Origin: Candidatus Nomurabacteria bacterium RIFCSPHIGHO2_01_FULL_37_25
GTDB taxonomy: Bacteria; Patescibacteriota; Minisyncoccia; Phycocordibacterales; UBA9973
Assembly (NCBI GenBank): GCA_001786765.1
Contig: MFTH01000016.1
Span: 21,666 to 85,665, forward strand
Length of the DNA stretch: 64,000 bases
Direction of reading: 5' to 3'
Shown: one piece after another, positions 3,081 through 46,913 of the stretch
How the letters are laid out: every line of letters begins with the position of its first letter
Numbering within the stretch: the stretch's first letter is position 1
Made by a program: the position numbers and the translations under genes
Notes under the pieces: model-generated
The model's input: the letters and a program-made list of their open reading frames with translations, nothing else
What the model was told of the DNA's origin: nothing
The model's database searches: none

Positions 3081-3566
3081 ATGGGACTTATGTATGAAAT
3101 TCTAAAAGAGCTAAGTAGCCAATCTTTTTATTATAAAGGGGTACAGGTTAATTTATTTGGACTCCCAAAATTTAAAGATTATTCGCGGAATAGTATAAGC
3201 GGTTCTCTCTCTTATATGCATAAAAAAGGTTTTTTAGAATATGATGACGAAAAAATAAAAATTACTCATGAAGGTCGAAAATATATAACAAGAAAATTCG
3301 ATTCATTAAAACAATTTAATTTCAAATTTGGAAAAGATGCGCCCAAAAATCTTATAGTTATGTTTGATATTCCGGAGACTAGAAAAGCCGAAAGAGAATG
3401 GTTACGTTGGCATCTAAAAAAATTTAATTACTTGATGATTCAAAAGAGCGTGTGGGTCGGGCCGTCACCACTACCTAAAGAATTTTTAGATTATGTAAAA
3501 AGTATAGGTATAAAGGATGGATTAAAAACCTTCAAACTAGCCAAAGGCTACGTATTTGAAAAATAA
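3081..3566 (+). CDS. small wHTH + PaaX-C/Cas2-fold domain protein (PaaX-family-like putative regulator)
   Basis: 161 aa. The C-terminal LIVMFDIPETRKAEREWLRWHLKKFNYLMIQKSVWVG resembles the PaaX C-terminal / Cas2-like motif (hhhFDIPE...R..LR..L...GF..LQ.SVW). The N-terminus looks like a winged helix. Confidence 0.45.
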   Translation: MGLMYEILKELSSQSFYYKGVQVNLFGLPKFKDYSRNSISGSLSYMHKKGFLEYDDEKIKITHEGRKYITRKFDSLKQFNFKFGKDAPKNLIVMFDIPETRKAEREWLRWHLKKFNYLMIQKSVWVGPSPLPKEFLDYVKSIGIKDGLKTFKLAKGYVFEK

Positions 3567-3681
3567 CAAATACTTATATTTCTGCTATCGCAGAGTTCTA
3601 AGTATTTGTTAGTGTTTGTTATTTGTTTAGGTTAACTATTTTATCTTAAGATTATATTTTAAGATTATATCTTAAAATTAA

Positions 3682-4932
3682 CTATAATATTTTCTCTTTA
3701 ATTCTCTCAAGGGCGAGGATGAATGCGCCCATGCGCAGAGAAGTTTTTGTTTTTTTTGTTTTTTCTAACATTTTTTTAGAGGCGCCTTTCATAATTTTAT
3801 TTAATTTTTCAAAAACCTTTTCTTCACTCCAATGTTTATTTTTCAAATTTTGGTCCCATTCAAAATACGAAACTACAACTCCTCCGGAATTCGCAAGTAT
3901 ATCTGGCACAACCGGAATATCTTTTTTAAATAAAATTTCATCTGCCTCGGGCGTCGTAGGACCGTTGGCAAGTTCTAAGATAGCTTTAGCTTTTATTTTT
4001 CCAGCATTTTTCTCAGTTATAACATTTTCAAAAGCGGCTGGGATTAGAAGGTCACAGGGGAGTTCGAGTAATTCTGCATTTGTAATATTTTTAGCTCCTG
4101 GAAAATTTTTAAAGCTACCAGTCTTTTTCTTATAATTTTCAACACCTTCTAAATCTAATCCATTTTTGTTAAATATTGCGCTCTTAGAATCAGATACCGC
4201 TATGACTTTATGTTTATTTTCAGTAAAAATACGCGCTACATTTCCACCTACATTTCCAAAACCTTGAACCACTACTTTGCATTCTTCTGGGAGTTTGAGT
4301 TCTTTTCGAAGAGCGTCAAAAGCATAAAAACCACCTAAGCCAGTTGCTGGGCCTCTACCTTCTGAACCGCCTTTGTCTATAGGCTTACCTGTAAATGTCG
4401 CTCTTGTTTCATTGATATTTTTATTTTTAGTTATTTTTTTGTATTCATCTGCCATCCAAGCCATTATCTCTGGCGTGGTATTTACATCCGGCGCAGGCAC
4501 ATCTTTATATGGTCCCAAAATATCAGAAAGTTTTTGCACCCATCCGCGCGAAAGTTTTTCCAGTTCTCCTTTAGACAACTTTTTCGGATCAACTGTTACT
4601 CCGCCTTTACCTCCACCCATCGGAATTCCAGCTACTGCGCATTTGAGCGCCATCCAGAAAGCGAGAGCTTTTACTTCATTTATTTCAGTATCAAGATGGT
4701 ATCTGATTCCACCCTTGTATGGCCCTAGAGCGTTGTTATATTCCACTCTATATCCTTCAAAAACTCGCAAAGAACCGTCGTCCATTTTTATTGGAATCGA
4801 AATTCTTATATCGCGATCGGGTTGGCGCATTCTCTTTATAAACTCAGCGCTAAAACTTTTGTTTATTTTAGCAACTTTGTCTAGCTGTGCCATGGCGTTC
4901 TTAAATGGATTGTGCATGTTTATAGTATACAT
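3682..4932 (-). CDS. gdhA: NAD(P)-specific glutamate dehydrogenase
   Basis: 416 aa. KGGIRYH, GIPMGGGKGG, GFGNVGG dinucleotide motif. Confidence 0.9.
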   Translation of the reverse strand: MYTINMHNPFKNAMAQLDKVAKINKSFSAEFIKRMRQPDRDIRISIPIKMDDGSLRVFEGYRVEYNNALGPYKGGIRYHLDTEINEVKALAFWMALKCAVAGIPMGGGKGGVTVDPKKLSKGELEKLSRGWVQKLSDILGPYKDVPAPDVNTTPEIMAWMADEYKKITKNKNINETRATFTGKPIDKGGSEGRGPATGLGGFYAFDALRKELKLPEECKVVVQGFGNVGGNVARIFTENKHKVIAVSDSKSAIFNKNGLDLEGVENYKKKTGSFKNFPGAKNITNAELLELPCDLLIPAAFENVITEKNAGKIKAKAILELANGPTTPEADEILFKKDIPVVPDILANSGGVVVSYFEWDQNLKNKHWSEEKVFEKLNKIMKGASKKMLEKTKKTKTSLRMGAFILALERIKEKIL

Positions 4933-4938
4933 TAAAAA

Positions 4939-5697
4939 TTAAATTTCTGGTACGAATTTTTTTAAGACTTCAAATTCTTCATTAGAGTTTGCGGCGAGTG
5001 CTTCGGTCGGCTCGATATCGATAGATTCGATTTTTTCTCCTTGGTTCATAGCTATTTGTATCAAATCAGTTTGATAATATTGTTTTTGGTCATTATTTGT
5101 TTGGAGCTTCTTTAAGTTTTTCCAAAGCCAATTTGCATTAAAACAAAAAAATATTGGATTTATTTCGGTAACTTTCTTTTCTTCATCATTTGTATCTCGA
5201 AACTGAACGTCTTTGGTGATCTCATTCTTTTCGTTACGAATTATTCGGGAAAAACTATTATAGAAAACATTTCTCCAGTCTTTAAAATCCGGAAGCTTTA
5301 CTGTAGCCATGGTTATCTTTGCCCCTGATTCTAGATGTTTATTTGCTAGTTTTTGTATCGTTTCAGTAGTTATAAAAGGATGATCGCTCGGCAAAACCAT
5401 TACATTTTTTGACTTATTTTTTAGCAAACTCTCCGCAATCATTATGGCGTGTCCAGTGCCTAGCTGTTCTTCTTGGATTGCGTAATTATATTTGTCGCCA
5501 AGTTCTTGCATTATCTCCTCTCTTCTGTGTCCGACAACCACAACCGGGTTTTCGTCTATTCCAGATTTACTGATTGATTCCAGTACGTATTTTATCATTG
5601 GCTTAGCATTTAATTGCACTAAAACTTTCGGCACCTCGCCTTTCATTCGAGTGCCTTTGCCGCCAGCCAGTATTATGATTCGTATATCCTTTTGCAT
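4939..5697 (-). CDS. sugar-phosphate nucleotidyltransferase, GlmU N-terminal (uridyltransferase) domain only
   Basis: IIILAGGKGTRMKGEVPKVL, QEEQLGTGHA. It matches the GlmU pyrophosphorylase domain. There is no left-handed beta-helix acetyltransferase half (252 aa). Confidence 0.65.
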   Translation of the reverse strand: MQKDIRIIILAGGKGTRMKGEVPKVLVQLNAKPMIKYVLESISKSGIDENPVVVVGHRREEIMQELGDKYNYAIQEEQLGTGHAIMIAESLLKNKSKNVMVLPSDHPFITTETIQKLANKHLESGAKITMATVKLPDFKDWRNVFYNSFSRIIRNEKNEITKDVQFRDTNDEEKKVTEINPIFFCFNANWLWKNLKKLQTNNDQKQYYQTDLIQIAMNQGEKIESIDIEPTEALAANSNEEFEVLKKFVPEI

Positions 5698-5718: not shown

Positions 5719-5862
5719 AAATTACGAAACTTGTCGAAGGCATGTCTTTTTTAGGGGGTTTCGAGGCTGTCGAGCGCTGAACTTCAAGATTTTTCAAGGC
5801 TAATTTTTATTTGAAAAATCCGTACCCTAGAAAAAGACATGCCCAGAAAGAGTTTTGTAATT
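5719..5862. repeat. family-1 structured repeat, copy A (long form: outer stem + inner stem + core 5754-5827, core forward)
   Basis: Outer inverted repeat AAATTACGAAACT / AGTTTTGTAATT. Inner inverted repeat GGCATGTCTTTTTTAGGG / CCCTAGAAAAAGACATGCC. Core is GGGGGTTTCGAGGCTGTCGAGCGCTGAACTTCAAGATTTTTCAAGG...TTGAAAAATCCGTACCC. Confidence 0.85.
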
Positions 5863-7675: not shown

Positions 7676-7710
7676 CCTTCGGTCGCCGAAGCGACCTCAT
7701 AAATTACAAA

Positions 7711-7819
7711 ACTCATAAAATATCAATTTTTTCCGGTACGGATTTTTTGAAGGTTAAAAAATCCTGAAGTTTGCTCGCCGTCGCTCGCAAAACCCCTGCA
7801 AAAATTATATTTTATGAGT
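7711..7819. repeat. family-1 structured repeat, copy B (core 7734-7796, reverse orientation, divergent 5' half)
   Basis: Flanking inverted repeat ACTCATAAAATAT / ATATTTTATGAGT. Core is CGGTACGGATTTTTTGAAGGTTAAAAAATCCTGAAGTTTGCTCGCCGTCGCTCGCAAAACCCC. Confidence 0.8.
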
Positions 7820-7822
7820 TTC

Positions 7823-8848: not shown

Positions 8849-8878
8849 AATTTCATTATACACTATACATGGAATTTT

Positions 8879-8974
8879 AAAAATGTACTTTTGCAGGGGT
8901 TTCGAGGCTGTCGAGCCGAGAACTTCAGGATTTTTTAAGCTTCAAAAAATCCGTACCGGAAAAAGTACATTTTT
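8879..8974. repeat. family-1 structured repeat, copy C (core 8896-8958, forward). It fills the ftsZ-stop / trxB-start spacer.
   Basis: AAAAATGTACTTTT-gc-GGGGTTTCGAGGCTGTCGAGCCGAGAACTTCAGGATTTTTTAAGCTTCAAAAAATCCGTACCG-g-AAAAAGTACATTTTT. Confidence 0.85.
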
Positions 8975-8992
8975 AAAATTCTAGCCTGCTTT

Positions 8993-10183
8993 TTATTTCT
9001 TGCGTCTCAAAAATGCTGGAACAGCGCTCCAGTCATCACCATCATCTTCTATGATGATATCTTTTATAGGTTCTATTTTTTTGTCTGTTTTATTTATGAA
9101 ACTAACATTAACATTCCCATTTTTTATAGTGTTATTTATTTCTTTTTTTGCCAAAACCACATTCTCTTCTTTAAGTAGTATTTGATTAGAAGTTCCTGAT
9201 CCGCTAAAGAGATTTTGACGAGGAGCATCAGCAGGGAAGTTGGTAGCGATAACTGTAACTTTCAATTCACCCTTTTTCAATTTTTCATCACGAATTGTAC
9301 CGAAGATTACCTTCGCGTCTTTGTCGATTGACTCTGTGATTATTTTGGCCGCTTCTTGGATTTCATGAATAGCTAGGTCGTCTCCGCCAGAAATCGCAAA
9401 GAGCACGCCTTTAGCTCCGTGGATTGAAACTTCAAGGAGCGGAGAGTTAATAGCGGCTACAGCGGCTTTTTCAGCTCTTTTTTCACCTGAAGCGGTACCG
9501 ATACCCATAAGCGCGCTGCCAGCATCTTTCATTACAGCTTTAATATCCGCGAAATCAACATTGATGATGCCAGGAGTCGTGATAAGGTCTGAAATACCTT
9601 CCACAGCTTGGCGCAGAACATTGTCGCAATTAGCAAAAGCATCTTTAAAATTGGTATTTTTATCAGACAACTGAAGCAACTTATCATTTGGAATAACAAT
9701 AATCGCGTCCACTTCTTTAGATAATTCTTCGATGCCTTTTTCGGCCATTTTCATTCTGTGAGTTCCTTCAAAGAAAAAAGGTTTGGTGACGACAGCAACA
9801 GTGAGTATGCCTTGTTCTCTAGTCGCGCGAGCCACGATCGGAGCCGCGCCTGTGCCCGTGCCTCCACCCATTCCACAAGCAATAAAAACCATATCTGCCC
9901 CCTTGATAACATCTTGGATTTCAGATTTTGTTTCTTCAGCCGCTTTTTTCCCAACTTCTGGGTCCATGCCAGCGCCTAGACCTTTTGTAAGATTTTTCCC
10001 TATGTGAATTTTTTTCTCAGCCAGAGAATGATGCAGGTCTTGCGTGTCAGTATTCATACAGATAAAAGAGACTCCCTTGACCTTAGAATTTATCATATGG
10101 TTGATAGTGTTTTTACCTGATCCTCCTATTCCGACAACCATAATCCGAGCGAAACTCTCTATTTCTTGATTTATTTTTGGCAT
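8993..10183 (-). CDS. ftsZ: cell division GTPase FtsZ
   Basis: GGGTGTGAAPIVA tubulin signature. 396 aa. Confidence 0.95.
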   Translation of the reverse strand: MPKINQEIESFARIMVVGIGGSGKNTINHMINSKVKGVSFICMNTDTQDLHHSLAEKKIHIGKNLTKGLGAGMDPEVGKKAAEETKSEIQDVIKGADMVFIACGMGGGTGTGAAPIVARATREQGILTVAVVTKPFFFEGTHRMKMAEKGIEELSKEVDAIIVIPNDKLLQLSDKNTNFKDAFANCDNVLRQAVEGISDLITTPGIINVDFADIKAVMKDAGSALMGIGTASGEKRAEKAAVAAINSPLLEVSIHGAKGVLFAISGGDDLAIHEIQEAAKIITESIDKDAKVIFGTIRDEKLKKGELKVTVIATNFPADAPRQNLFSGSGTSNQILLKEENVVLAKKEINNTIKNGNVNVSFINKTDKKIEPIKDIIIEDDGDDWSAVPAFLRRKK

Positions 10184-15384: not shown

Positions 15385-16329
15385 ATGCACAGGACAGTTC
15401 TTTTAAATGAAGTTATAGATGGGTTGAATTTAGGCTCCGGTTCCATCGTCGTAGATGCAACATTTGGCGGCGGAGGGCATAGTCTGGAGATTTGTAAAAG
15501 ATATCCGAGTGTGAGGATAATTGCCTTAGATCAAGATCAAAGTGCTCTCGAAAAAGCCAAAAGTAAATTCAAAGATTCAAATTGTGATGTTACTTTTATA
15601 AATGCGAATTTTAGAGACCTAGATAGGGTGAACTTGGGAAATTTAAGCGTCGTGGGTTCCCTGTCCTCTGGTCTCCGAGGGCGAAGGCGCAAAAATTTTC
15701 CAAGTTCACCCGTAGACGGAATCATTTTTGATTTAGGTTTGAGTTCTGACCAGTTGGAGAATTCTGGACGAGGATTTTCTTTTCAAAAAGATGAACCACT
15801 TTTAATGACTATGAAAGAGAATCCAACTTCCGGAGATGTTACAGCGAAAGATGTTGTAAACACTTGGGGAGAAGATAGTTTAGCCGATATTATTTACGGT
15901 TATGGTGAAGAAAAGCAAGCTCGCAGAATCGCTAAAAGAATAGTGGAATTTAGGAAAAAACAGGAAATTAAAACCACCTTTGATTTGGTAAAAGTAATAG
16001 AAGAGGCGATTCCAGCCAAGTTTCGTAAAGGCAAAATCCATTATGCCACTAAAACTTTTCAGGCAATAAGGATAGCGGTAAATGATGAGTTGGGAGCGCT
16101 TGCCGAGGGTTTGGATAAAGGTTTTAAGTTATTGAAGGTAGGAGGGAGGATGTCGGTGATTTCTTTCCATAGTTTAGAGGACAGGATAGTAAAGAGATTT
16201 TTTAAGAAAAAAGCGGAAGAAAATTTAGCAAAGTTAATTAATAAAAAACCCATTATTGCTAAATTAGAAGAAATAAAAAATAATCCGAGGTCAAGAAGCG
16301 CAAAATTAAGAATTTTATCCCGACGCTAA
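15385..16329 (+). CDS. rsmH: 16S rRNA (cytosine1402-N4)-methyltransferase RsmH, carrying an in-frame ~80-nt repeat insertion
   Basis: VVDATFGGGGHS, VDGIIFDLGLSSDQL, SFHSLEDRIVK. Extra segment NLSVVGSLSSGLRGRRRKNFP relative to RsmH homologues. Confidence 0.9.
   Translation: MHRTVLLNEVIDGLNLGSGSIVVDATFGGGGHSLEICKRYPSVRIIALDQDQSALEKAKSKFKDSNCDVTFINANFRDLDRVNLGNLSVVGSLSSGLRGRRRKNFPSSPVDGIIFDLGLSSDQLENSGRGFSFQKDEPLLMTMKENPTSGDVTAKDVVNTWGEDSLADIIYGYGEEKQARRIAKRIVEFRKKQEIKTTFDLVKVIEEAIPAKFRKGKIHYATKTFQAIRIAVNDELGALAEGLDKGFKLLKVGGRMSVISFHSLEDRIVKRFFKKKAEENLAKLINKKPIIAKLEEIKNNPRSRSAKLRILSRR
15626..15711. repeat. family-2 hairpin element inserted in-frame in rsmH
   Basis: GGGTGAACTTGG-gAAATTTAAGCGTCGTGGGTTCCCTGTCCTCTGGTCTCCGAGGGCGAAGGCGCAAAAATTTT-CCAAGTTCACCC. 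The core is shared with 24905-24970. Confidence 0.85.
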
Positions 16330-16432: not shown

Positions 16433-16818
16433 AAACAATAAGTTCAAAATTAAATATGTATATAGAAAAAGTGAGTGTAATAAATAATAATATTGAAAAA
16501 CTTATTTTGAATCTTATTTTTTGTTCTTTTGGAGCGTTTGCATTGTTGTATGTTTTATTTTTAGGAAATATGGTTCATAATATTATAGAGCGTAGAAGTC
16601 TTGAAGCGAATGCGCGTGGACTTTCTAATGAAGTTAGAGATTTAGAACTTACTTATTTATCCATGTCTAGCAATGTTGACTTAGCCCTTTCGCATTCTCT
16701 GGGTTTTAAAGAGACAAAAACAATATTCGCAACTCGAAAACCTCTCACCTATGGATATACCGGCTTTAGACAGGGTGAATCTTTTGGCGGTGTAAAAGCA
16801 ATTCAAAATGACCTATAG
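16429..16818 (+). CDS. ftsL: cell division protein FtsL-like (bitopic, coiled coil)
   Basis: 129 aa. Single TM helix LILNLIFCSFGAFALLYVLFL. Position between rsmH and ftsI. Confidence 0.5.
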   Translation: MKTISSKLNMYIEKVSVINNNIEKLILNLIFCSFGAFALLYVLFLGNMVHNIIERRSLEANARGLSNEVRDLELTYLSMSSNVDLALSHSLGFKETKTIFATRKPLTYGYTGFRQGESFGGVKAIQNDL

Positions 16819-18517
16819 TTTTTTTTCGAGATCAAAAATTGTTCTTTTTTGTGTTCTAATTTTTTCTTTGATTTTAATAGCCAAGCTTTTTTTCCTGCAA
16901 GTTGTGCATGGCGATATTTACTCAAAATCTGCTGACCGCCAATATTCTACTCCTCCGGACAATATTTATGAACGCGGGACTATTTTCTTCAAGAGTAAAG
17001 ATGGACAACTCATTTCGGCTGCTACACAAGCTAATGGATTCAAGGTTGCCATAAATTCTAGTAAAATTATTGACAAAGAACTGGTTTATCAAAAACTCGC
17101 TAAAATAATCTCTCTTGATCATGCTGATTTTATAAATAAAGCGTCCAAGTTGAATGACCCTTATGAAGAGGTGGCAAACCGTCTTTCTAAAAAGCAAGCT
17201 GATGCAATATCTCTTCTCAAAATACCCGGGGTAAGTATTTTTAAAGAGAAATGGCGTCTTTATCCGGGAGGAACACTTGCTTCCCATGCGCTCGGTCTTG
17301 TCGGATACAAGGATGCAGAGCTAGGCGGGCGTTATGGTCTCGAGAGAGAGTATAATGCCGAACTTACTAGGGACAACAACCCTAATATTAATTTTTTTGC
17401 TGAAATTTTTTCCAATATAAATAAAACTTTTTTTAAAAATGAAATAATGCAAGGAGACTTGGTAACCACCATTGAGCCAACTGTGCAGAATTTTTTAGAG
17501 AAAAAATTAATGGAGTTAAAAGAAAAATATCAAATTGATTCTATTGGTGGAATAGTTATGAATCCGCAAGACGGAGCTATCTATGCTATGAGCGTTAAAG
17601 CAGATTTTAATCCAAATGATTTTTCTAAAACTAAAACATCTACTTTTTCTAATCCAATAGTGGAAAATGTTTTAGAATTTGGCTCTGTGGTAAAACCCTT
17701 GATTATGGCAGGAGCGATTGATGCGGGGGTGGTCTCGGCAGATACGACATACACCGATAATGGTTTTGTGAAGATTGAAAATAAAGAAATATCGAATTTT
17801 GATAAAAAGGGCAGAGGTCCAGGCACGAGTATGCAAGAAGTTTTAAATCAATCTCTCAACACCGGCATGGTTTTTGTAGCCCAAAAATTAGGCAAAGAAA
17901 GGTTGCGAGATTATTTATTTTCATACGGAATCAAAGATAAAACCGGCATTGATTTACCTAATGAAACTTCGGGACTTGCGGGAGGCATATCAAAAAGTCC
18001 TAGAGAAATCGAATATGTTAATGCCGCCTTTGGTCAAGGTATTGCTCTTACCCCGATTGGATTCATTCGAGCATTCGCCTCACTTTCAAATGGTGGCAAT
18101 CTGGTTGTGCCTCATATTGTGGAAGAAATAAAATATGATGATGGTAGTTCTAAAGTTATGAACTATGATACGGTAGCTACCAAAATAACAAAACAAACTT
18201 CAGAAGAGATAACTAGAATGTTAGTGACAGTAATGGATAAAGCGATCAAAGGAGGCGCAGGGAAGTTAGAACATTTTAGCGTGGCGGTGAAAACTGGCAC
18301 AGCGCAGGTTGCGGATAATACTACTGGAGGATATTATACGGACAGGAATACGCATTCTTTTGTCGGTTATTTTCCAGCTTATGATCCGAAGTTTATAGTC
18401 TTTCTTTATGCTATAAATCCAAAAGGTACGCCATACGCAGCGACAACTTGGTCGGATCCATTTTTAGAGATTACTAAATTTTTATTAAATTATTACGAGA
18501 TTCCGCCAGATCGGTAG
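16808..18517 (+). CDS. ftsI: peptidoglycan D,D-transpeptidase FtsI / PBP2-type
   Basis: SVVK (SxxK), SLN, KTGTA motifs. N-terminal TM segment. Confidence 0.85.
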   Translation: MTYSFFSRSKIVLFCVLIFSLILIAKLFFLQVVHGDIYSKSADRQYSTPPDNIYERGTIFFKSKDGQLISAATQANGFKVAINSSKIIDKELVYQKLAKIISLDHADFINKASKLNDPYEEVANRLSKKQADAISLLKIPGVSIFKEKWRLYPGGTLASHALGLVGYKDAELGGRYGLEREYNAELTRDNNPNINFFAEIFSNINKTFFKNEIMQGDLVTTIEPTVQNFLEKKLMELKEKYQIDSIGGIVMNPQDGAIYAMSVKADFNPNDFSKTKTSTFSNPIVENVLEFGSVVKPLIMAGAIDAGVVSADTTYTDNGFVKIENKEISNFDKKGRGPGTSMQEVLNQSLNTGMVFVAQKLGKERLRDYLFSYGIKDKTGIDLPNETSGLAGGISKSPREIEYVNAAFGQGIALTPIGFIRAFASLSNGGNLVVPHIVEEIKYDDGSSKVMNYDTVATKITKQTSEEITRMLVTVMDKAIKGGAGKLEHFSVAVKTGTAQVADNTTGGYYTDRNTHSFVGYFPAYDPKFIVFLYAINPKGTPYAATTWSDPFLEITKFLLNYYEIPPDR

Positions 18518-18524
18518 TAATGAA

Positions 18525-18644
18525 TCCCGTTAGAGATATGATGGTTTTTCAGAAAAAATGAAAGAGAATATAACAATATGATTAAAGTTTTAATTAAAAG
18601 TAATGTAATTACGGAAATCTAAAGATTTCCTATCTCTAACGGGA
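18525..18644. mobile_element. TIR-bounded element, copy 1 (TIR TCCCGTTAGAGATA / TATCTCTAACGGGA); the right TIR abuts the murF ATG
   Basis: Perfect 14-bp terminal inverted repeats enclose 92 nt of AT-rich sequence. The same TIR is at 41105-41183. Confidence 0.7.
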
Positions 18645-19993
18645 TGAAGACAATTCTTAAAAAAATAATAGCTTACATACTACAGATAGAATCACGCCTG
18701 GTAATTTTTAGATATAAACCGAAGATTGTCGCTATTACCGGCTCGGTCGGCAAGACTTCCACTAAGGATGCAGTTTATGCAGTTCTCTCCGGAATGTCGC
18801 ATGTTCGCAAAAGTGAGAAAAGCTATAATAGCGAAATAGGATTGCCACTGACTATTTTAGGTATTCCAAATGGATGGAATAATCCTCTGGTGTGGGTTCA
18901 AAATATTTGGAAAGGTCTTTGGCTTTTTCTTAGTCCTTTTGGGCCTCACAAATATCCCAAATGGCTTGTCCTCGAAGTCGGTGTAGGCAAGCCGGGTGAT
19001 ATGCGTCGCACAGCTTCTTGGTTTAAAACTGATGCGGTTATCATCACTGCCATCAGCGAGACTCCGGCTCATATTGAATTTTTTAATTCCCGAAAAGACC
19101 TTATAAAAGAAAAAAGCGAGCTCATAAAAACTTTAAAACCAGATGGCATTTTAATATTAAATGCTGATGACGAGGACGTGCTCTCTATGAGAAACCAAAG
19201 TAAGACTAAAGATAAGCATCGCGCTATAACTTATGGATTTACAGAAGGCGCTGATGTTTTGGCATCTCAAGATAGTATTTTTTATGGTGATTTAGGTGAA
19301 CCTCGAGGAATAACTTTTAGAATAGATGAGAGGGGGAATAGTCTACCTGTAATTACAGAAGGTGTATTTGGCAGAAATCATGTCTATGCTTCTCTCGGAG
19401 CTTTAGCTTTTTCTTCAATTTTGAAATTTAATATGCTGGATGCGGTGAATTCGCTAAAAAATTATGATGTTGCGCCAGGGCGTATGCGATTGCTAAATGG
19501 TATTAACGGAACTTTGATTATTGATGATACTTATAACTCTTCTCCTTTTGCTTGTGAATCCGCGCTTAAAACTTTAGGAGAAGTAAAATGTTTGGGGAGG
19601 AAAATTGCTATTTTGGGCGATATGCTTGAATTAGGTAAATACACAGAAGAAGCTCATAAAAATATCGGCAAGATAGCTAAAGAAAATTGTGATGTTTTGG
19701 TAGTGGTGGGTCATAGAGCGCAAGCTATAAAGTCTGGTGCTCTGGAAGCAGGGATGAATAATGCGAATATTTTTGAATTTTTAGATTCATATCAAGCTCA
19801 CGAATTTGTAAAAACTTTTGTGCGGGCAGGCCCGCCTGCTCCTGACGAAGGAGGGCGGGCAGGGGACTTGGTGCTCGTAAAAGGTTCTCAAGGTATGCGT
19901 ATGGAGCGTGTGGTAGAGGCGATACTTTTTGATAAAGAAAATAAAGAAAAACTACTGGTTCGTCAAGACAAAGAATGGTTGAAGAAAAAATAA
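18644..19993 (+). CDS. murF: UDP-N-acetylmuramoyl-tripeptide--D-alanyl-D-alanine ligase with a GC-rich hairpin insertion near the C-terminus
   Basis: ITGSVGKTSTK P-loop, Mur ligase domains. Extra RAGPPAPDEGGRAG before LVLVKGSQG. Confidence 0.85.
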   Translation: MKTILKKIIAYILQIESRLVIFRYKPKIVAITGSVGKTSTKDAVYAVLSGMSHVRKSEKSYNSEIGLPLTILGIPNGWNNPLVWVQNIWKGLWLFLSPFGPHKYPKWLVLEVGVGKPGDMRRTASWFKTDAVIITAISETPAHIEFFNSRKDLIKEKSELIKTLKPDGILILNADDEDVLSMRNQSKTKDKHRAITYGFTEGADVLASQDSIFYGDLGEPRGITFRIDERGNSLPVITEGVFGRNHVYASLGALAFSSILKFNMLDAVNSLKNYDVAPGRMRLLNGINGTLIIDDTYNSSPFACESALKTLGEVKCLGRKIAILGDMLELGKYTEEAHKNIGKIAKENCDVLVVVGHRAQAIKSGALEAGMNNANIFEFLDSYQAHEFVKTFVRAGPPAPDEGGRAGDLVLVKGSQGMRMERVVEAILFDKENKEKLLVRQDKEWLKKK

Positions 19994-23308: not shown

Positions 23309-23435
23309 ACTTGGCTATTTTAGCATAATTTTGTTATACTAGACAGGAAAATGTTGTTTTAGAAAGCCTTGCGCAGGAGCTTAGAAAATAAAAGCGGTAC
23401 TCCGATTATTATTTTCTTGAGCGACGAGCAGTTCG

Positions 23436-23453
23436 CTGGCAAAGCTTTGCCAG
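23436..23453. promoter_or_regulatory. 18-bp perfect palindrome CTGGCAAAGCTTTGCCAG in the divergent exonuclease/yqeY promoter region
   Basis: A perfect dyad ~38 nt upstream of the yqeY ATG. Candidate operator. Confidence 0.4.
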
Positions 23454-23490
23454 ACAGATTGCTTTATAAAATAATATTTTCCTGTGTTTT

Positions 23491-23940
23491 ATGCTACACG
23501 AACAAATTAAAAATGGAATAAAAGAAGCGATGATGGCAAAGGATGCTTTGCGTTTGAAAGCTTTTAGAGCAATGTCGGCCGCATTTACAAATGAACTCGT
23601 CGCTAAAGGCAGGAAACCGCAAGATATGCTTACTGACGAGGAGGCGATAGCTGTGATTGCGAAACTTGCAAAGCAACGTAACGATTCTATTGTTCAGTTT
23701 AGAAAGGGTGGCAGAGAGGATTTGGTAAAAGAAGAATCAGCAGAGCTTTCGATTCTAAAAACGTATTTACCAGAAATGATGAATAAAAGTGAGGTTGAAA
23801 AAATAGCTCGCGCTAAAAAAAGCGAATTGGGTATTACAGATGCTACTAAAAAAGGAATGCTTATGTCGGCAGTTATGAAGGATTTAAAAGGCAAAGCGGA
23901 TGGTAATTTAGTGAAAGAAGTCATAGATTCACTCTTTTGA
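23491..23940 (+). CDS. yqeY: GatB/YqeY domain protein
   Basis: 149 aa, colinear with the YqeY family (MLHEQIKNGIKEAMMAKDALRL...). Confidence 0.8.
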   Translation: MLHEQIKNGIKEAMMAKDALRLKAFRAMSAAFTNELVAKGRKPQDMLTDEEAIAVIAKLAKQRNDSIVQFRKGGREDLVKEESAELSILKTYLPEMMNKSEVEKIARAKKSELGITDATKKGMLMSAVMKDLKGKADGNLVKEVIDSLF

Positions 23941-23993: not shown

Positions 23994-24893
23994 ATGAAAA
24001 AATTAAGCAAAAAATTAGTAACGCACGATGGATCTTTTCAATCAGATGATATTTTCGCGGCCGCGACGCTTGCTATTTTTCTTGAAAAAGCTGGAGAGAC
24101 TTTTGAAATAATAAGAACTCGAAATCCTGAAATCATTAATACTGGCGATTATGTTTTTGACGTAGGTGGAATATATGATGAAGCTATAAACAGATTTGAT
24201 CATCATCAAATAGGCGGGGCGGGCAAAGGTTTGGACAATATAGACTATGCCGCTTTTGGTTTAGTTTGGAAAAAATTTGGAAAAATAGTTGCTGGGAGTG
24301 AAAAGGTGGCAGGACTTATAAATAAACGTTTAGTTACCCCAATTGATGCTTGGGATAACGGTTTTGATTTGGTTCTTAATAAATATAATGTAACGCCGTA
24401 TTATGTGCAGCACTTTTTTTTGTCGATGGTGCCGACTTGGAGAGAAGAGAATATAACCAACGATGAAATGTTTCTAAAAAGCGTAGAGATTGCAAAAGAG
24501 ATTTTGTTACGGGAAATAATTCATGCGCAGGACTTGCTTTTAGCAGATGAAAAAGTTCTTTCTATATATAACAATACTAAAGACAAACGAATAATTATTT
24601 TAGATAAAAATTATCCTTATGAATATACTCTAACTAATTTCTCTGAACCCCTTTTTGTAATCTATCCCAGAATTAATGACAATTTGTGGGGAGTGAAAGC
24701 CGTTAGGAAAAATCCAAAATCTTTTAGTAATAGAAAAGACTTCCCAAAATCGTGGGCCGGATTGCGAGACGATGAATTGCAAAAAACCAGCGGAGTGTCG
24801 GATGCTGTATTTTGTCACCGAGGATTATTTATGGCTGTAGCCAAATCAAAAGAAGGAGCTATGAAATTAGCTCAAATTGCTGTAAAATCATAG
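23994..24893 (+). CDS. MYG1/UPF0160 family metal-dependent hydrolase
   Basis: THDGSFQSDDIFAAA and FDHH motifs characteristic of MYG1. Confidence 0.75.
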   Translation: MKKLSKKLVTHDGSFQSDDIFAAATLAIFLEKAGETFEIIRTRNPEIINTGDYVFDVGGIYDEAINRFDHHQIGGAGKGLDNIDYAAFGLVWKKFGKIVAGSEKVAGLINKRLVTPIDAWDNGFDLVLNKYNVTPYYVQHFFLSMVPTWREENITNDEMFLKSVEIAKEILLREIIHAQDLLLADEKVLSIYNNTKDKRIIILDKNYPYEYTLTNFSEPLFVIYPRINDNLWGVKAVRKNPKSFSNRKDFPKSWAGLRDDELQKTSGVSDAVFCHRGLFMAVAKSKEGAMKLAQIAVKS

Positions 24894-24981
24894 ACTATGA
24901 GAATGAAAAATTTAAGCGTCGTGGGTTCCCTGTCCTTATGACCTCGAGGGCGAAGGCGCAAGAATTTTTTATTCTCATAGT
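24894..24981. repeat. family-2 hairpin element, intergenic copy (between the MYG1 gene and obg)
   Basis: ACTATGAGAAT-gaaAAATTTAAGCGTCGTGGGTTCCCTGTCCTTATGACCTCGAGGGCGAAGGCGCAAGAATTTTtt-ATTCTCATAGT. The 11-bp flanking inverted repeat differs from the rsmH copy. Confidence 0.85.
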
Positions 24982-24995
24982 CTGTACTATATATC

Positions 24996-28871: not shown

Positions 28872-30581
28872 ATGTTAGGAAAAATGAAAGATGAAATTAA
28901 AAAATTTTTTAAAGGAGATGTGGAAGATGGAGAAGAAACACTTTCAAAATATTCACGGGATGCGAGTATTTTTAAAGTGAAACCCAAGCTCGTTCTTTTC
29001 CCAAAAGATTCGGAAGATGTAAAAAAATTAGTGAAATGGGTTTCTGAAAATAAAGATAAGTACGCAGATATTGAAAGAAATAAAGACTGGAAAAATCTTT
29101 CCATTACTTCTAGATGCGCGGGGACAGATATGTCTGGAGGCGCCATAGGAGAATCTTTAATTTTAGATTTTACAAAATATATGAATAAGTTAATAAGATG
29201 GAGTCAGGATGTGAAGAATTCTTCACATCCTGACTCCATTACTGTGCAGCCTGGTATGTTTTATAGAGATTTTGAAAAATTAACTTTAGAAAAAGGACTT
29301 ATTTTACCTTGTTACACAGCCTCCAAAAGTATAAATGCGATGGGGGGAATGTTTGGTAACAATTCTGCCGGCGAGAGAACGCTGAAATATGGTAAAACTG
29401 AAGATTATATTTTAGAAACTAAAATAGTTTTTTCTGATGGGATTGAAAGAATTGTAAAACCTATTTCTTTGAACGACATTTCTAAGCAAGGAGAAATTTA
29501 TAAAAATATTTATAATTTAATTAAAAATAATAAAGAGGAGATAGAATTCGCGAAACCCAAAGTGCACAAAAACTCGGCTGGTTATTATATATGGAATGTT
29601 ATTCAAAAGAATGTTTTTGATATGAATAAATTGCTTGTTGGTTCGCAGGGAACTTTAGGTATTGCCACAGAGATAACTTTTAAACTGGTACCGGAAAATA
29701 AACATTCAAAACTAGTTGCTATTTTTATGAAAAATCTAGAACCGCTTGGTCGTTTAGTAGATGAAATTTTAACGCTTAACCCTGAAACACTTGAAGCCTA
29801 TGATGACAAAACGATGAAATTAGCCGTCAGATTTTTCCCGGATTTTTTAAAAAATAAAGGATTTTTTGGGATGATTAAATTTATATGGAGTTTTTTACCA
29901 GAATTTTTCTTGATGGCCACAGGAGGTTTTCCTAAATTAATTCTTCTGGCTGAATTTGCAGGCGGAGATGAAGTGGAGATAAATAAACAATGTATAAAAC
30001 TTAGAGAGAAAATCAAAAATTTTAAATTAAAAATTCACATTACTAAATCTGAAATGGAAGCAAATAAATATTGGGATATTAGAAGAGAGAGTTTTGCATT
30101 ACTTCGAAAGCACATAAAAGGCAAGAGCACTGCTCCATTTATAGATGATATTATTGTCCGTCCAGAATTTCTGCCAAAATTTCTTCCAGAACTTAATGTT
30201 ATTTTAAATAAATATGATCTAACTTACACAATCGCTGGACATGCGGGAGAAGGGAATTTTCATGTTATTCCATTGATGGATTTTAAACGTTCTGATACGG
30301 CAAAAATAATAATGGAACTTTCGGAGAAAGTATATAACTTAGTGATAAAATATCATGGTTCGATTACGGCTGAACACAATGATGGCATAATTCGCACTCC
30401 ATATTTAGAAAAGATGTACGGGCAAAAGATGATTAAAATCTTCAGTGAGATTAAGGAAATTTTTGATTCTAAAAATATTTTTAATCCTGGGAAAAAAGTC
30501 GCAATAGCTTCTGTGGGTGGTACTAAGGAATATATGGTGACCCATATTGCAGTAGAACATGATGTAAATCATAAAGTTTAA
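28872..30581 (+). CDS. FAD-linked oxidase (GlcD/D-lactate dehydrogenase-like)
   Basis: FAD-binding PCMH domain (RCAGTDMSGGAIG). C-terminal FAD-oxidase domain. 569 aa. Confidence 0.7.
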   Translation: MLGKMKDEIKKFFKGDVEDGEETLSKYSRDASIFKVKPKLVLFPKDSEDVKKLVKWVSENKDKYADIERNKDWKNLSITSRCAGTDMSGGAIGESLILDFTKYMNKLIRWSQDVKNSSHPDSITVQPGMFYRDFEKLTLEKGLILPCYTASKSINAMGGMFGNNSAGERTLKYGKTEDYILETKIVFSDGIERIVKPISLNDISKQGEIYKNIYNLIKNNKEEIEFAKPKVHKNSAGYYIWNVIQKNVFDMNKLLVGSQGTLGIATEITFKLVPENKHSKLVAIFMKNLEPLGRLVDEILTLNPETLEAYDDKTMKLAVRFFPDFLKNKGFFGMIKFIWSFLPEFFLMATGGFPKLILLAEFAGGDEVEINKQCIKLREKIKNFKLKIHITKSEMEANKYWDIRRESFALLRKHIKGKSTAPFIDDIIVRPEFLPKFLPELNVILNKYDLTYTIAGHAGEGNFHVIPLMDFKRSDTAKIIMELSEKVYNLVIKYHGSITAEHNDGIIRTPYLEKMYGQKMIKIFSEIKEIFDSKNIFNPGKKVAIASVGGTKEYMVTHIAVEHDVNHKV

Positions 30582-36415: not shown

Positions 36416-36799
36416 ATGAAAGATTTTCTTAACTGGCATACCAAAAAATCAAAACTGGATATAATTGAACAAAGACCGTATTTCCACGAAGGGGAAGTCT
36501 GGTATACGAGTTTGGGTTTGAATATAGGCTATGAACAAGATGGAAAAGGGCTGGACTACTTAAGACCAGTGCTGATTGTTAGAAAATTTAATAATGATGT
36601 TTGTTGGATTGTACCACTCACTCACACCCCCAAAGACAATATTTTCTACGTTCATATCACAGTAATAGGAAAATCAAGCACAGCTATACTTTCTCAACTA
36701 AAGCTTCTTGACGCGAGGCGTTTTAGCCATATGATTGATAAAATTTCTGATGAGGATTTTAAGTTAGTAACAAAAAAACTCAAAGGACTAATTCCTTGA
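36416..36799 (+). CDS. PemK/MazF/Kid-family endoribonuclease toxin-like protein (orphan; no adjacent antitoxin ORF)
   Basis: EGEVWYTSLGLNIGYEQDGKGLDYLRPVLIV...WIVPLTHTP aligns with Kid/PemK RGEIWLVSLDPTAGHEQQGTRPVLIV...VVVPVTS. The start codon lies 6 nt after the rpoB stop. Confidence 0.6.
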   Translation: MKDFLNWHTKKSKLDIIEQRPYFHEGEVWYTSLGLNIGYEQDGKGLDYLRPVLIVRKFNNDVCWIVPLTHTPKDNIFYVHITVIGKSSTAILSQLKLLDARRFSHMIDKISDEDFKLVTKKLKGLIP

Positions 36800-36880
36800 G
36801 TTTCTTGTGTTTTTACCTCGTGCCGAAGCACGAGTCGGGCCGAAGCCATTTAGATTCAGATTATAGCAAAATCAAAATAT

Positions 36881-37354
36881 ATGTCAAGTGAAAAACCATT
36901 CTTATTTTATAAGCTAATTATTAACAATTTAACTAAAAACAATATGAAAAATAATCAAAAAGGTTTTGTAAATATTATCTTGATTGGAGTTATTGTTGTA
37001 CTCTTGAGTCTAGTGGGATATTTTAGTATCGAAAAAAAATCTCAGCAATTCAATAAACAACAAACTTCGATAATTCCAAATACGGAAACGCAGATCAGAA
37101 TTGCAATAGAAACAGTGTTAACGGAAGGCAAGTTGTCTAATCCAAATGAGCAAATACCAAAGGGTATCAAATTGCTTTCACTCAAACTTGCGGAAAATAA
37201 TGTAACTCTAAATTTTAGCAAAGAGTATTTGTCTGGAGGACAGGGAGTAGCTGAGGATGTTTTTTCTCTGGTTTCAAATACGATTACTAAAATATACCCA
37301 GAGGTGAACAAATTTACGATTTTAATTGAAGGGGAAAACATACAAGACTATTAA
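36881..37354 (+). CDS. membrane-anchored GerMN-like domain protein (start probably at the internal Met MKNNQKGF)
   Basis: TM helix IILIGVIVVLLSLVGYF. C-terminal LNFSKEYLSGGQG...TILIEGE resembles the GerMN fold. Confidence 0.35.
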   Translation: MSSEKPFLFYKLIINNLTKNNMKNNQKGFVNIILIGVIVVLLSLVGYFSIEKKSQQFNKQQTSIIPNTETQIRIAIETVLTEGKLSNPNEQIPKGIKLLSLKLAENNVTLNFSKEYLSGGQGVAEDVFSLVSNTITKIYPEVNKFTILIEGENIQDY

Positions 37355-37398: not shown

Positions 37399-40300
37399 AT
37401 GAAAACCTTAAACACAACTGAATTTGATTCCATAGCTCTACGACTGGCTTCACCGGAGCAGGTAAAAGAGTGGTCTTTTGGAGAAGTTACTAAACCAGAA
37501 ACAATAAATTACCGCACTGGCAGGTCTGAACGCGGTGGTCTTTTTGATGAGAAAATATTTGGACCAGAAAAAGATTACGAATGCTATTGTGGAAAGTATC
37601 GTAGGATTCGTTATAAAGATATTATTTGTGAGAAATGCGGAGTTGAAGTTACTCGTTCTATAGTCAGACGTGAGCGAATGGGGCATATAGAGCTAGGAAC
37701 TCCAGTCTCGCATATTTGGTTTTTGCGCGGAGTGCCTTCTCGAATGAGTATCTTGCTCAATATTTCTGTTTCTGATCTAGAGAAGGTTATATATTTTGCT
37801 GGTTACATAATTACCAAAGTTCATGAAGAAGAAAAAGAGTCTGTTATCACGGGTCTAGAAAAAGAATATAAAGTTAAATTAAAAAATGCAGTTGATGACG
37901 ACACTCGAGAGAAATTGAAGAATCTGCTTTCTGTTATAAAAAAAGAGATTGGAGAAATTTATGAAGGAAAAGTTTTAAATGAAATTTCTTTTCATCACTA
38001 TTCTTTAAAATACGGAACTTGTTTTGAAGCAAACATAGGCGCTGAAGCGATCTATTCTATTTTTAAAAATCTAGATTTGAATAAATTAAAAGTTTATACG
38101 GAGAAAATGATAGAGGGAGTTAGTATGATTGAAAAAGAGAAATTGCAAAAAAGGCTTTCTCTTATTCGCGCTATGACTTATGCGGGGATTCGACCTGAAT
38201 GGATGTTTCTAACTGTTATCCCAGTCATCCCGCCCGTTTTGCGTCCAATGGTTGCTCTTGATGGAGGCAGGCATGCGACTTCTGATTTAAACGATCTTTA
38301 TCGTCGAGTTATAAACAGAAACAATCGTTTGAAAAAGTTAAAAGAAATTAATGCTCCAGATGTAATCCTGCGAAATGAAAAAAGAATTATTCAGGAAGCA
38401 GTCGATGCGTTGATTGATAATTCAATTGCCAAACAAAATGATTCGGCTGCGATGAGTCAATCCCAAAAGCGTCCCTTAAAATCCTTGTCAGATAATCTAA
38501 AGTCTAAACAAGGTCTTTTCCGACAGAACTTACTTGGAAAAAGAGTGGACTATTCAGGACGCTCGGTTATTGTTGTCGGTCCCAATCTAAAATTAAACCA
38601 ATGTGGATTGCCGAAGCATATGGCGCTGGAACTTTTTAGACCATTTGTAATTTCTAAAATTTTACAAGCAGAATTGGCATTTAATATTCGTGGAGCTAAT
38701 AAGCTCATAGAAGAACGCACTCCCGAGGTCTGGGCGATGTTGGAAGAAGTTATTGCGGGCAAATATGTTCTTTTAAACCGCGCGCCGACTCTGCATCGTC
38801 TAGGTATTCAAGCTTTTAATCCGATTTTAATTGAAGGAAATGCAATTCAGATTCATCCTCTTGTTTGTCAGGCTTTTAATGCTGACTTTGATGGAGACCA
38901 AATGGCAGTTTATGTTCCGTTACTGGAAGAAGCTCAATCCGAAGCCAAAGAATTAATGGCTTCAAATAAAAATTTACTTAAACCGCAAAACGGAGATGCT
39001 ATAGTGCACCCTCGTATGGACATGGTGCTTGGAAGCTATTGGATGACAAAATCAATGGATGGGGAAAAAGGTGAAGACAAGTATTTTTCACGTCCAAATG
39101 TTGCTATTAGCGCCTATGAATACGGGATCATTTCTCTACGCGCTAAAATAAAAGTTCTAGCAAGAGATGATTTCAAATACAAAAAATTTGCTCCGGGAAT
39201 ATTTGAAACTTCTGTCGGAAAACTTCTTTTCAATAGCATCTTGCCGGACGATTTTTCTTATGTTAATGATGAAATGACTCAAGACAGGCTTTCAGCCCTC
39301 TTGGACGAACTTATCATACATTCAGGTGTGGAAAATATTCCAGCTATTCTAGACAAAATTAAAGCATTTGGTTTTAAATACGCGACGGTTTCTGGAACTA
39401 CTTGGGGATTGGACAATGTTTCTATGTCACCCGAAAAACCAAAGATTATAGCTCAAGGTAAAAAATTGGAAGAAGAAACAATATCACAGTGGCGTGAAGG
39501 TCTTTTGTCTGAAGAAGAAAAATATCAGAAAATTATTGAAATTTGGACGCATACAAAAAAAGAATTGGAAAAAGTTTTACCAAAAACTCTCGACAAAAAA
39601 AGTTCCACTTATGATTTATTCACTTCTAAAGCTAGAGGCACTATGTCGTCCCTTATGCAAATGACCGGGATGATTGGACTTATTCAAAATAATCAAGGCA
39701 AGACTTTGGAATTTCCTATTATTCCTTCTTATCAAGAGGGACTTTCTCCAATTGAATATTTCGTTATTACTCACGGCGCTCGCAAAGGCGCTTCAGACAC
39801 TGCTCTCAACACTGCTAAAGCTGGGTATTTGACACGAAGATTGGTTGATGTGGCTCAAGATGTGGTTATTACTGAAAAAGACTGTGGAACAAAAGAAGGG
39901 AAAATAATTACCAGAGAGAATATTTCTGGAATTGAAATTCCACTTTCAAAAAATATTCATGGACGCATATTAGGAACTGATTTGAAAGATAAAAATGGCA
40001 AAGTGCTTTACAAGAAAGGATTTTTAGTCACTAAAGAAGAAGCTCACAACATCGAAGGGGCGGGCTTTACCGAAGTGTTTGTTCGTTCTCCACTGACTTG
40101 TCGTACTGTTCACGGTCTTTGTCAAATGTGCTACGGTCTTGATTTAGGGCGTAATCGTTTAGTAGATTTAGGTGAGGCGGTGGGTATTATAGCAGCTCAA
40201 GCTATCGGCGAACCGGGCACTCAATTAACATTGCGTACATTTCACGCAGGAGGTGTAGCAGGCACTGACATAACGACTGGGTTACCGCGCGTTGAGGAAA

Positions 40301-41049: not shown

Positions 41050-41104
41050 TTTTTGTGTTTTTTAGAGTGATGATTAAAAACACTATGTCTTCATTATTTG
41101 TTGA

Positions 41105-41183
41105 CCCCGTTAGAGATAACACCATGCATGTTTCATTATATTAATTAATCTTGTGAATTTATTTATGAAAATCTCTAACGGGG
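41105..41183. mobile_element. TIR-bounded element, copy 2 (CCCCGTTAGAGATA / ATCTCTAACGGGG); the right TIR overlaps codons 3-7 of dnaG
   Basis: Same 13-14-bp TIR as 18525-18644 with an unrelated AT-rich interior. Confidence 0.7.
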
Positions 41184-42969: not shown

Positions 42970-43048
42970 ATGACCCGTTCGACAAACTCAGGCCTTCGGC
43001 TCTGAGGCTCAGGCTCGAAGAGGTCATGGTGATAAGATAGAACCATGA
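42970..43048 (+). promoter_or_regulatory. two mutually exclusive hairpins; the second sequesters the rpoD start codon
   Basis: ATGACC-structured loop-GGTCAT (42970-43027) overlaps TCATGGTGA-taagatag-AACCATGA (43024-43048; ATG 43045). It shares the GTCATGGTGA...GAACCATGAAAA motif with 16404-16436. Confidence 0.6.
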
Positions 43049-46891: not shown

Positions 46892-46913
46892 TTACTAAAA
46901 TAACACTTAATTC

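Follow-up and report, generated by a model that had tools for sequence, protein, structure and literature searches.

Short inverted-repeat elements at the start codons of murF and dnaG in a Nomurabacteria genome: a putative MITE family found in several bacterial phyla

The repeats of Correia elements (CREE/NEMIS) in Neisseria form an RNA stem that is cleaved by RNase III, and these elements can alter the expression of downstream genes. Rickettsia palindromic elements (RPEs) are small mobile palindromes tolerated within essential coding genes of reduced genomes, where they are translated as in-frame internal peptides, while REPINs are hairpin-forming doublets of about 100 nucleotides (nt) with conserved ends, a less conserved middle and correlated changes in their arms. 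Here we describe a family of elements that shares some traits with each of these, represented by two copies in a 64,000-nt stretch (the window) of contig MFTH01000016.1 from Candidatus Nomurabacteria bacterium RIFCSPHIGHO2_01_FULL_37_25. One copy lies at the boundary of ftsI and murF and the other at the 5′ end of dnaG. A preliminary description of the window had noted both as segments bounded by terminal inverted repeats next to the two start codons. Both segments are very probably copies of a non-autonomous DNA transposon, that is, of a MITE (miniature inverted-repeat transposable element).

The likeness to Correia elements covers size (about 100–150 bp), lack of coding capacity, terminal inverted repeats, a short target duplication and a frequent position immediately upstream of genes; Correia elements are also co-transcribed. 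However, the repeat sequence is unrelated, the duplication is TA in Correia elements but a 4-bp TNNA here, and Correia elements belong to one genus whereas the present family occurs in at least eight phyla, with a covarying hairpin and an end base that abuts the ATG and rebuilds the start codon. With RPEs the family shares a small palindromic mobile form, tolerance in essential genes of reduced genomes and partial translation, yet the dnaG copy does not add an internal peptide: it truncates the native 5′ end, supplies a start and has only its right repeat translated. REPINs have no target duplication, depend on a single-copy Y1 transposase, are species-specific and lie mostly at gene 3′ ends, in contrast to the 4-bp duplications, occurrence in several phyla and preference for gene starts found here. 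Bypass elements, such as the gap of T4 gene 60 and the ‘byps’ of Magnusiomyces mitochondria, are likewise non-coding insertions with terminal complementarity and with matching flanking codons at which take-off and landing could occur (GUU...GUU at dnaG, AUG...AUG at murF), but the short subtype described below has its own in-frame ATG and the gap here is 79–120 nt. From known MITEs the family departs by an end that is invariant across phyla, a covarying sub-terminal hairpin, the rebuilding of start codons and a subtype that donates a start codon. A literature search returned no published mention of the repeat sequence, nor of MITEs in these phyla.

The two window copies and their empty sites

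The window contains exactly four occurrences of the 12-mer CCCGTTAGAGAT, at 18526 and 41106 on one strand and at 18632 and 41171 on the other, and no extra copy was found with up to two mismatches allowed. These sites form the arms of two elements of 120 nt (copy 1, 18525–18644) and 79 nt (copy 2, 41105–41183), confirming both segments as first delimited. The perfect arms measure 15 nt in copy 1 (18524–18538 and 18631–18645, spacer 92 nt) and 14 nt in copy 2 (41104–41117 and 41171–41184, spacer 53 nt), and the two-arm pattern had no match in 100 shuffles. The window is rich in long-range inverted repeats, with 12 perfect pairs of at least 13 nt at spacers of 20–160 nt compared with 0.47 in shuffles. 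Covariance model R1 scores copy 1 as a canonical full-length member (92.6 bits over 18524–18645) and copy 2 as a short, hairpin-less subtype (52.7–55.1 bits over 41104–41184). A search of the window with this type of model, filters off, found only the two copies; an 18-bit match at 58979–59073 is not a family member. Since copy 1 is identical in sequence and orientation in six independent assemblies of the species, it is not an assembly artefact. Rfam gave no match over 18525–18644 or 41105–41183, either at the gathering threshold or at E ≤ 10. A tRNA origin was also rejected, since the match of the D-arm of tRNA-Glu (6644), the 8-mer TCTAACGG, is no more than chance would give in 64 kb. The gene calls of ftsI, murF, rpoC, dnaG and rpoD are confirmed by Pfam, and all features of the two loci are given in Table 1.

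The right repeat of copy 1 does stand at the murF start, and its last base is itself the A of the ATG (18644). The N-terminus of MurF, MKTILKK, agrees with relatives. When 18525–18648 is removed, the window reads ...CGGTAGTA-ATGAAGACA... and aligns with empty ftsI-murF sites in four relatives (L129, L132, L135 and L143), where the distance from the ftsI stop to the murF ATGAA is −4 to +5 nt; MurF identity is 71–75% in L129, L132 and L135. Judged from these alignments, copy 1 is an insertion between the ftsI stop and the murF ATG. In five other relatives (L127, L130, L133, L134 and L138) the same junction holds other, unrelated palindromic elements, among them a perfect hairpin of 40–50 nt, CAGATAG(A/C)GCCT...AGGC(T/G)CTATCTG, and a longer element, about 180 nt in length, whose arms (AAATTAATGAACGAAGTGAATATAATTTTCCC...) measure 30 nt. 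At the ftsI-murF boundary insertions recur, and they come from several repeat families.

Copy 2 is inserted after the second base of codon 7 of the native dnaG frame, in the TTGA of codons 6–7. The right repeat had been read as residues 3–7 of DnaG, which holds for the open reading frame (ORF) from ATG 41165, but the native start lies upstream at ATG 41085 and now opens a dead-end ORF of 19 codons whose stop is inside the element. Removal of 41105–41187 restores MSSLFVDQIKSKIDIL (ATG TCT TCA TTA TTT GTT GAT CAA), which encodes MSSLFVDQIK, and 110 of 120 DnaG homologues likewise begin uninterrupted with MSSSVDQIKS(R/K)IDIL or MNSPV.... Two relatives, L151 and L154, whose DnaG is 81% and 88% identical, have the empty site ATGTCCTCATCTG-TTGA-(T/G)CAAAT (also noted as ATGTCCTCATCTGTTGA(T/G)CAAAT), so that the proposed check of both junctions in relatives yields empty sites at both loci. 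With the native start cut off, the present protein must begin at the ATG-AAA of the element (41165) and read MKISNG-VDQIK; as far as the reading frames tell, these element-borne codons must give DnaG the new N-terminus MKISNG.

Four DnaG homologues are annotated with MKISNG... or MKVSNG... (P0027, P0037, P0069 and P0114). The dnaG gene is filled at the same TTGA in the window, P0027 and P0037, and at the ATG in P0069 and P0114. Each of the TTGA-filled lineages has a closer empty relative (88–89%, 84% and 93% identity, compared with 75–80% between filled lineages). The element end ...TTTATGAAA-ATCTCTAACGGG is shared by L044, L148 and L150, and over its interior copy 2 is 87% identical to the insertion that dnaG of L148 acquired independently. 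A remnant of this end is found in L147, which has lost the element's left half and keeps the right repeat as coding sequence and gene start. The sequences are best read as at least five independent hits in the first 20 nt of dnaG, although repeated precise loss or allele transfer may be an alternative. In the same operon, the window has two small ORFs (127 and 157 amino acids) between rpoB and rpoC (36416–37354), and L153, with a DnaG 89% identical, carries a PemK-like toxin gene in the rpoB-rpoC gap (3247–5474) and a HicAB pair in the rpoC-dnaG gap (9263–9980). The spacers of the rpoB-rpoC-dnaG operon are insertion hot spots.

Table 1. Features of the murF and dnaG loci in window coordinates (TSD, target-site duplication; TIR, terminal inverted repeat)
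Feature	Position	Strand	Remarks
ftsI	16808–18517		Pfam
Vestigial murF start copy	18520–18561	+	Original ATG 18520–18522; 13-codon ORF MNPVRDMMVFQKK, then stop, running into element
Left TSD TGAA	18521–18524	.	Identical to 18645–18648
Left TIR, T-type, TCCCGTTAGAGAT	18525–18537	+	Sequence, model R1
Variable AT-rich interior of copy 1	18538–18609	+	No conserved positions across 57 hairpin-aligned members
Sub-terminal hairpin module TAC-GGAAATC-TAAA-GATTTCC-T	18610–18631	+	Stem 18613–18619/18624–18630; 7 pairs covary
Right TIR ATCTCTAACGGGA	18632–18644	+	Last base is A of murF ATG
Rebuilt murF start codon	18644–18648	+	Repeat-end A and TG of duplication; right TGAA copy 18645–18648
murF	18644–19993		Pfam
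rpoC	37399–41049		Pfam
Native dnaG start, cut off	41085–41144	+	ATG 41085 and 5 intact codons (MSSLFV)
Left TSD TTGA	41101–41104	.	Identical to 41184–41187
Left TIR, C-type, CCCCGTTAGAGAT	41105–41117	+	Sequence, model R1
Interior of copy 2, short hairpin-less subtype	41118–41170	+	Includes new dnaG start ATG-AAA 41165–41170
dnaG	Present ORF from ATG 41165		Pfam
Right TIR ATCTCTAACGGGG	41171–41183	+	Codons 3–7 of DnaG (ISNG and first base of V)
Right TSD TTGA	41184–41187	.	Inside codons 7–8 of present dnaG ORF
rpoD	43045–44274		Pfam

Family anatomy, hosts and start codons

An exact search for CCGTTAGAGAT-N41-101-ATCTCTAACGG in one genome per species found at least 120 loci in genome contigs, and the family is therefore not limited to the two copies of the window. 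Among the hosts are Patescibacteria of many classes (Saccharibacteria, Nomura-, Wolfe-, Kaiser-, Yanofsky- and Zambryskibacteria, among others) as well as Omnitrophota, Planctomycetota, Elusimicrobia, Ignavibacteria, WOR-3, Ratteibacteria and one Clostridia metagenome-assembled genome (MAG), at least eight phyla in all. The same pattern had no match in the 2.9 million viral contigs of IMG/VR, which leaves carriage by phages unsupported. The statistics below refer to 111 elements among the matches listed, a sample restricted to exact 11-mers in both arms and a gap of 41–101 nt; the design of the search accounts in part for how conserved the repeats look and for an apparent length mode of about 113–121 nt. 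Members measure 64–124 nt between their 11-mer ends and occur twice in the 64-kb window and three to five times in several MAGs. For most interiors the likeness between copies is below 75%, while the two copies on one contig represented by L009 and L122 are 97% identical. At one locus (L007, 3775–4158) about 240 nt, with a second, diverged element among them, interrupt the hairpin stem of an element, and at another (L035, 860–1047) the hairpin loop has an insert of about 60 nt; family members can thus be nested or expanded.

The terminal repeat is 13 nt long, YCCCGTTAGAGAT (Y-CCCGTTAGAGAT), and is found at both ends of the window copies and of 123 elements elsewhere. Its position 2 is T or C depending on the subtype and covaries perfectly with its partner (U-A in 31 cases, C-G in 22). 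In relaxed searches the outer 9 nt are invariant and the inner 3 nt vary, with 17 compensated and 13 uncompensated positions; the paired arm variants are GAGAC/GTCTC, GAAGT/ACTTC, GAAAT/ATTTC and GAGGC/GCCTC. A perfect 4-bp target-site duplication flanks 69 of the 111 elements, compared with 2 of 111 at an adjacent control position. TNNA makes up 55 of these 69 duplications, and TGAA with its complement TTCA accounts for 29.

Directly inside one of the two repeats lies a hairpin of the form AC-GGNNNNN-loop-NNNNNCC-T, for which at least 50 different stem sequences were found. Among 54 members all seven stem pairs change on both sides, 97.9% of the cells are paired (35–46% in slid controls), and 145 cells covary compared with 47 in shuffles. 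On the gene-sense strand the mismatches are G.U rather than A.C by 6:1. Outside the hairpin the interior is AT-rich with no conserved position in 57 hairpin-aligned members. The preliminary account of AT-rich interiors is thus borne out, except that the interior of copy 1 is not featureless: the conserved hairpin of the family occupies 18613–18630.

The position at gene starts is a trait of the whole family rather than a coincidence of two copies. In 42 of the 111 elements an ORF of at least 90 amino acids begins exactly at the last repeat base, and in these the start codon is composed of A or G from the repeat and TG from the duplication. The hairpin end points toward the gene start in 46 cases and away from it in 6 (30:3 for exactly abutting elements), as assigned by a simple hairpin finder that left 35 of the 111 elements unoriented; no such bias is seen at gene 3′ ends (6 versus 9). 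In Omnitrophota and Planctomycetota the element is more often found just 5′ of an intact AGGAG-ATG, with a TAAA duplication. A Shine-Dalgarno-like site precedes only 2 of 55 window genes, and given this near absence the loss of native upstream context may cost little. Many window genes have a −10-like box (for example TGATATAAT) that ends 6–8 nt before the ATG. The sequence pattern suggests that leaderless or very short-leader mRNAs are widespread in this organism. In 9 of 45 cases, compared with 3.9 in shuffles, the vestigial ORF left upstream meets no stop anywhere in the interior, a weak enrichment, and 8 of these 9 end at the UAA of the repeat, 4 nt before the real AUG, which is a weak hint in favour of reinitiation. 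Element length modulo 3 has no significant skew (20:15:10). A leader-peptide or coupling function was accordingly not adopted, the open-frame enrichment being weak and the length periodicity unclear.

Proposed transposition, predicted RNA structure and alternative explanations

The suggestion that the segments are a MITE-like family is supported by the number of loci, the 4-bp duplications, the empty sites and the nearly identical pair on one contig. It is not the case that only two copies exist, or that relatives keep these sequences as conserved leaders lacking the symmetry. At the sequence level the family shows the size, repeats, duplication, empty sites and multiple copies of a MITE, all that is expected save an identified parent insertion sequence. 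We propose that a transposase acting in trans, which we infer to be a DDE-type enzyme, would recognise the 13-bp repeats. Insertion is at a 4-bp staggered cut, in most cases TNNA, that becomes duplicated on both sides. On the right-hand strand the outermost repeat base is a purine (A for the T-type, G for the C-type), so that after insertion into A|TGNA the downstream copy reads ATG or GTG, respectively, flush with the element. The left copy keeps the original ATG and any overlapping or adjacent stop (ATGA). As the ends rebuild the start codon and the stop is kept, insertions exactly at gene boundaries are tolerated, or even preferred, and survive in compact genomes without Shine-Dalgarno sequences. 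At murF, the element entered between the ftsI stop and the ATG, leaving the vestigial 13-codon ORF upstream and rebuilding the start. At dnaG, the short subtype landed in TTGA, and its own ATG-AAA, in frame through the right repeat, now starts the protein, with MKISNG-VDQIK... replacing MSSLF-VDQIK....

Several observations weigh against transposition by an ordinary MITE. Neither the window nor 0.9 Mb of loci nor IMG/VR yielded a transposase or an autonomous element with these repeats, in scans that bridge repeat pairs up to 600 nt apart. ORFs between solo arms or long-range arm pairs at all loci encode membrane proteins, an NAD(P)H-dehydrogenase-like product and Fmt, with no transposase, and a Pfam scan of 20 window ORFs found none either. 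A DDE transposase that binds double-stranded DNA explains neither the covarying hairpin nor the compensated changes in the arms. Repeats that are invariant across at least eight phyla around interiors mostly less than 75% alike are unusual for a MITE, although this is partly a matter of ascertainment. The perfect 4-bp duplication is absent from 42 of the 111 elements, and the orientation counts leave out the unoriented part of the sample. Finally, no promoter consensus was found inside the elements in a sigma-70 scan of both copies and a profile of 57 interiors. A mobile-promoter function is likewise unsupported, with no sigma-70 or terminator site in either element and no conserved −10 or −35 box in the 57 interiors.

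The preliminary description also raised the possibility that the paired repeats form a long stem around the start region, with regulatory consequences. The predicted RNA stems are indeed stable (−39.3 and −35.1 kcal/mol, z = −6.4 and −6.3), and on the predicted folds the stem is likely to be a consequence of insertion. In read-through transcripts the repeats would pair as a stem of 14–15 bp, with two bases of the murF AUG, its A and U, inside the stem. The hairpin lies 1 nt from the 3′ strand of this stem, so stacking into a helix of about 22–24 bp is possible, and a hairpin stacked in this way would bring the upstream stop or vestigial start beside the real AUG. The compensated arms, the hairpin covariation, the 6:1 excess of G.U and the gene-directed orientation together suggest that a folded single strand in gene sense, most simply an mRNA leader, is under selection. 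We infer that an RNA structure serving as RNase III substrate, coupling device or 5′ stabiliser would explain the conserved stem pairing, the hairpin and the orientation.

These features give some room, though clearly less than even, to the alternative that the element was co-opted or was never merely selfish, and is a mobile 5′-leader cassette that may target start codons and that maintains expression of the downstream gene through its RNA stem and hairpin. This could work by a stop or vestigial AUG brought beside the real AUG (reinitiation), by an RNase III cut that yields a near-leaderless mRNA, or by a 5′ stabilising hairpin. Besides the structural covariation, wobble bias and compensated arms, such a role would fit the orientation toward gene starts with none at 3′ ends, the repeated hits at the dnaG 5′ end, the open vestigial ORFs that end just before the AUG, the right repeat that L147 keeps as coding sequence after losing the left half, and a genome without Shine-Dalgarno sequences. 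Start-adjacent elements with no gene end within 60 nt upstream also lie mostly exactly on the ATG despite nearby TNNA sites. However, the open-frame enrichment is weak and the length distribution not significant, the orientation bias could reflect avoidance of harm at the other end, and the start-codon bias could stem from a TNNA/ATGAA preference combined with purifying selection in compact genomes. A more specific version appears unlikely. In it, the family would be a structure-defined leader cassette that homes to start codons, where leaderless genes may offer their melted promoter or transcription start as the target, and that is equipped with a purine end or its own ATG-AAA and with a stem and stacked hairpin that set the upstream stop or vestigial AUG beside the real AUG or are cut by RNase III.

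Mobility as single-stranded DNA through an HUH/Y1 enzyme, either REPIN/RAYT or derived from IS200/IS605, would turn the stem and hairpin into recognition structures and would suit a hairpin beside one end that keeps its structure while its sequence varies, the compensated arm changes and the strand-specific tolerance of mismatches. The hairpin frame TAC-GG...CC-T is also common to a second repeat family in the window (see below). We nevertheless consider this improbable, as such transposition leaves no target-site duplication and uses a fixed tetra- or pentanucleotide target, in contrast to the variable 4-bp TNNA duplication; the scan of 20 window ORFs detected no domain of a Y1 transposase, and REPIN families are lineage-specific rather than shared across phyla. 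Bacteroides has invertible promoters with shared repeats, and identical short inverted repeats around unrelated interiors directly upstream of genes could suggest a comparable switch here, with the repeats as recombination sites and the interior flipping murF or dnaG on and off. Such a switch is most improbable given the 4-bp direct duplications and empty sites in relatives, interiors of 53–92 bp that are very short for synapsis, the same orientation in all six assemblies and a strongly fixed orientation across the family. There is also no sigma-70 consensus inside, both genes are essential, and flipping in dnaG would remove its only start codon. Stable predicted structures that overlap start codons might equally belong to non-mobile cis-regulatory leaders of the riboswitch or attenuator type conserved within a lineage, but this reading is refuted for practical purposes by the empty orthologous sites of close relatives at both loci and scarcely merits weight, the same repeats standing before unrelated genes in at least eight phyla with unconserved interiors and no Rfam match at E ≤ 10.

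Two further candidates are disfavoured. Integron attC sites have the core order 5′-RYYYAAC ... GTTRRRY-3′, which is reversed here (5′-GTTAGAG ... CTCTAAC-3′), and the copies are solitary at the starts of housekeeping genes with no integrase among the ORFs scanned. Translational bypass is needless and unlikely given the in-frame ATG borne by the element, which is kept in L147.

Other repeats in the window and implications

The window contains a second repeat family with five copies, all intergenic, at 5720–5862 (−), 7709–7821 (+), 8872–8981 (−), 45109–45255 (+) and 48396–48524 (−). A conserved core, GGTACGGATTTTTTGAAGCTTAAAAAATCCTGAAGTTCTCGGCTCGACAGCCTCGAAACCCC, spans about 60 nt with two hairpins and is closed by long arms (GAATTAYGAAACTC...). 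The first hairpin has the TAC-GG...CC-T frame seen in the hairpin of the start-codon element, and the second shows a compensatory change in the copy at 7709. No Rfam match was found for this family at E ≤ 10, and a hammerhead ribozyme (CUGAAGU...CGAAAC) was rejected, as it fails at A9 and has no Rfam match. Another core of about 60 nt, AAATTTAAGCGTCGTGGGTTCCCTGTCC...CGAGGGCGAAGGCGCAA, occurs at 15626–15711 within rsmH (15385–16329) and at 24892–24983 between genes, each with its own closing inverted repeat. In rsmH it adds 29 odd in-frame residues (RVNLGNLSVVGSLSSGLRGRRRKNFPSSP) just before the conserved DGIIFDLG motif and, as read from the translation, is an in-frame palindromic insertion of the Rickettsia RPE type. 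The tsaD gene (1561–2826, −) has a GC-rich segment of 116 nt (2010–2125) with 23-nt inverted repeats and about 40 added residues (TRKTRTLRGL...SSSFSL), located at the very point where the Pfam match to TsaD is split in two, immediately ahead of the conserved PRPM...FSFSGLKTA region; this is probably another in-frame repeat insertion. Both the rsmH and tsaD insertions look RPE-like, unlike the dnaG copy.

A bacterial class A RNase P RNA at 55715–56196 (+) scores 86 bits, below the Rfam gathering score of 100, and contains about 60 nt of AT-rich inserted sequence that a 22-bp stem closes (55992–56095), as well as a second insertion near 55745. Further repeats are an inverted repeat at 23336–23492 with 32-nt arms and a GC-rich interior of 93 nt just upstream of a gene at 23491, another at 46885–46997 with 20-nt arms over the end of the gene at 45647–46891 and the start of the next gene, and a perfect palindrome of 42 nt (29198–29239) within the ORF at 28872–30581.

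Repeats in Patescibacteria (the Candidate Phyla Radiation) and other uncultured bacteria with small genomes have hardly been catalogued. For annotation, the family means that gene callers extend ORFs into the right repeat and thereby produce N-termini, for instance MKISNG in DnaG, that are either spurious or truly new, and that ATG-led vestigial mini-ORFs appear upstream. For evolution, it means that the start codons of essential genes, including murF, dnaG, fmt and others, can have a transposon lying flush against them without the host being killed. Ordinary cut-and-paste transposition leaves three features unexplained, namely the invariant 13-nt end, the covarying hairpin and the fixed gene-ward orientation, and these point either to a transposase of an unusual kind or to a role at the RNA level in starting translation where Shine-Dalgarno sequences are absent. 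If true, a role as leader cassette would explain how essential genes in at least eight phyla of small-genome bacteria tolerate these elements.

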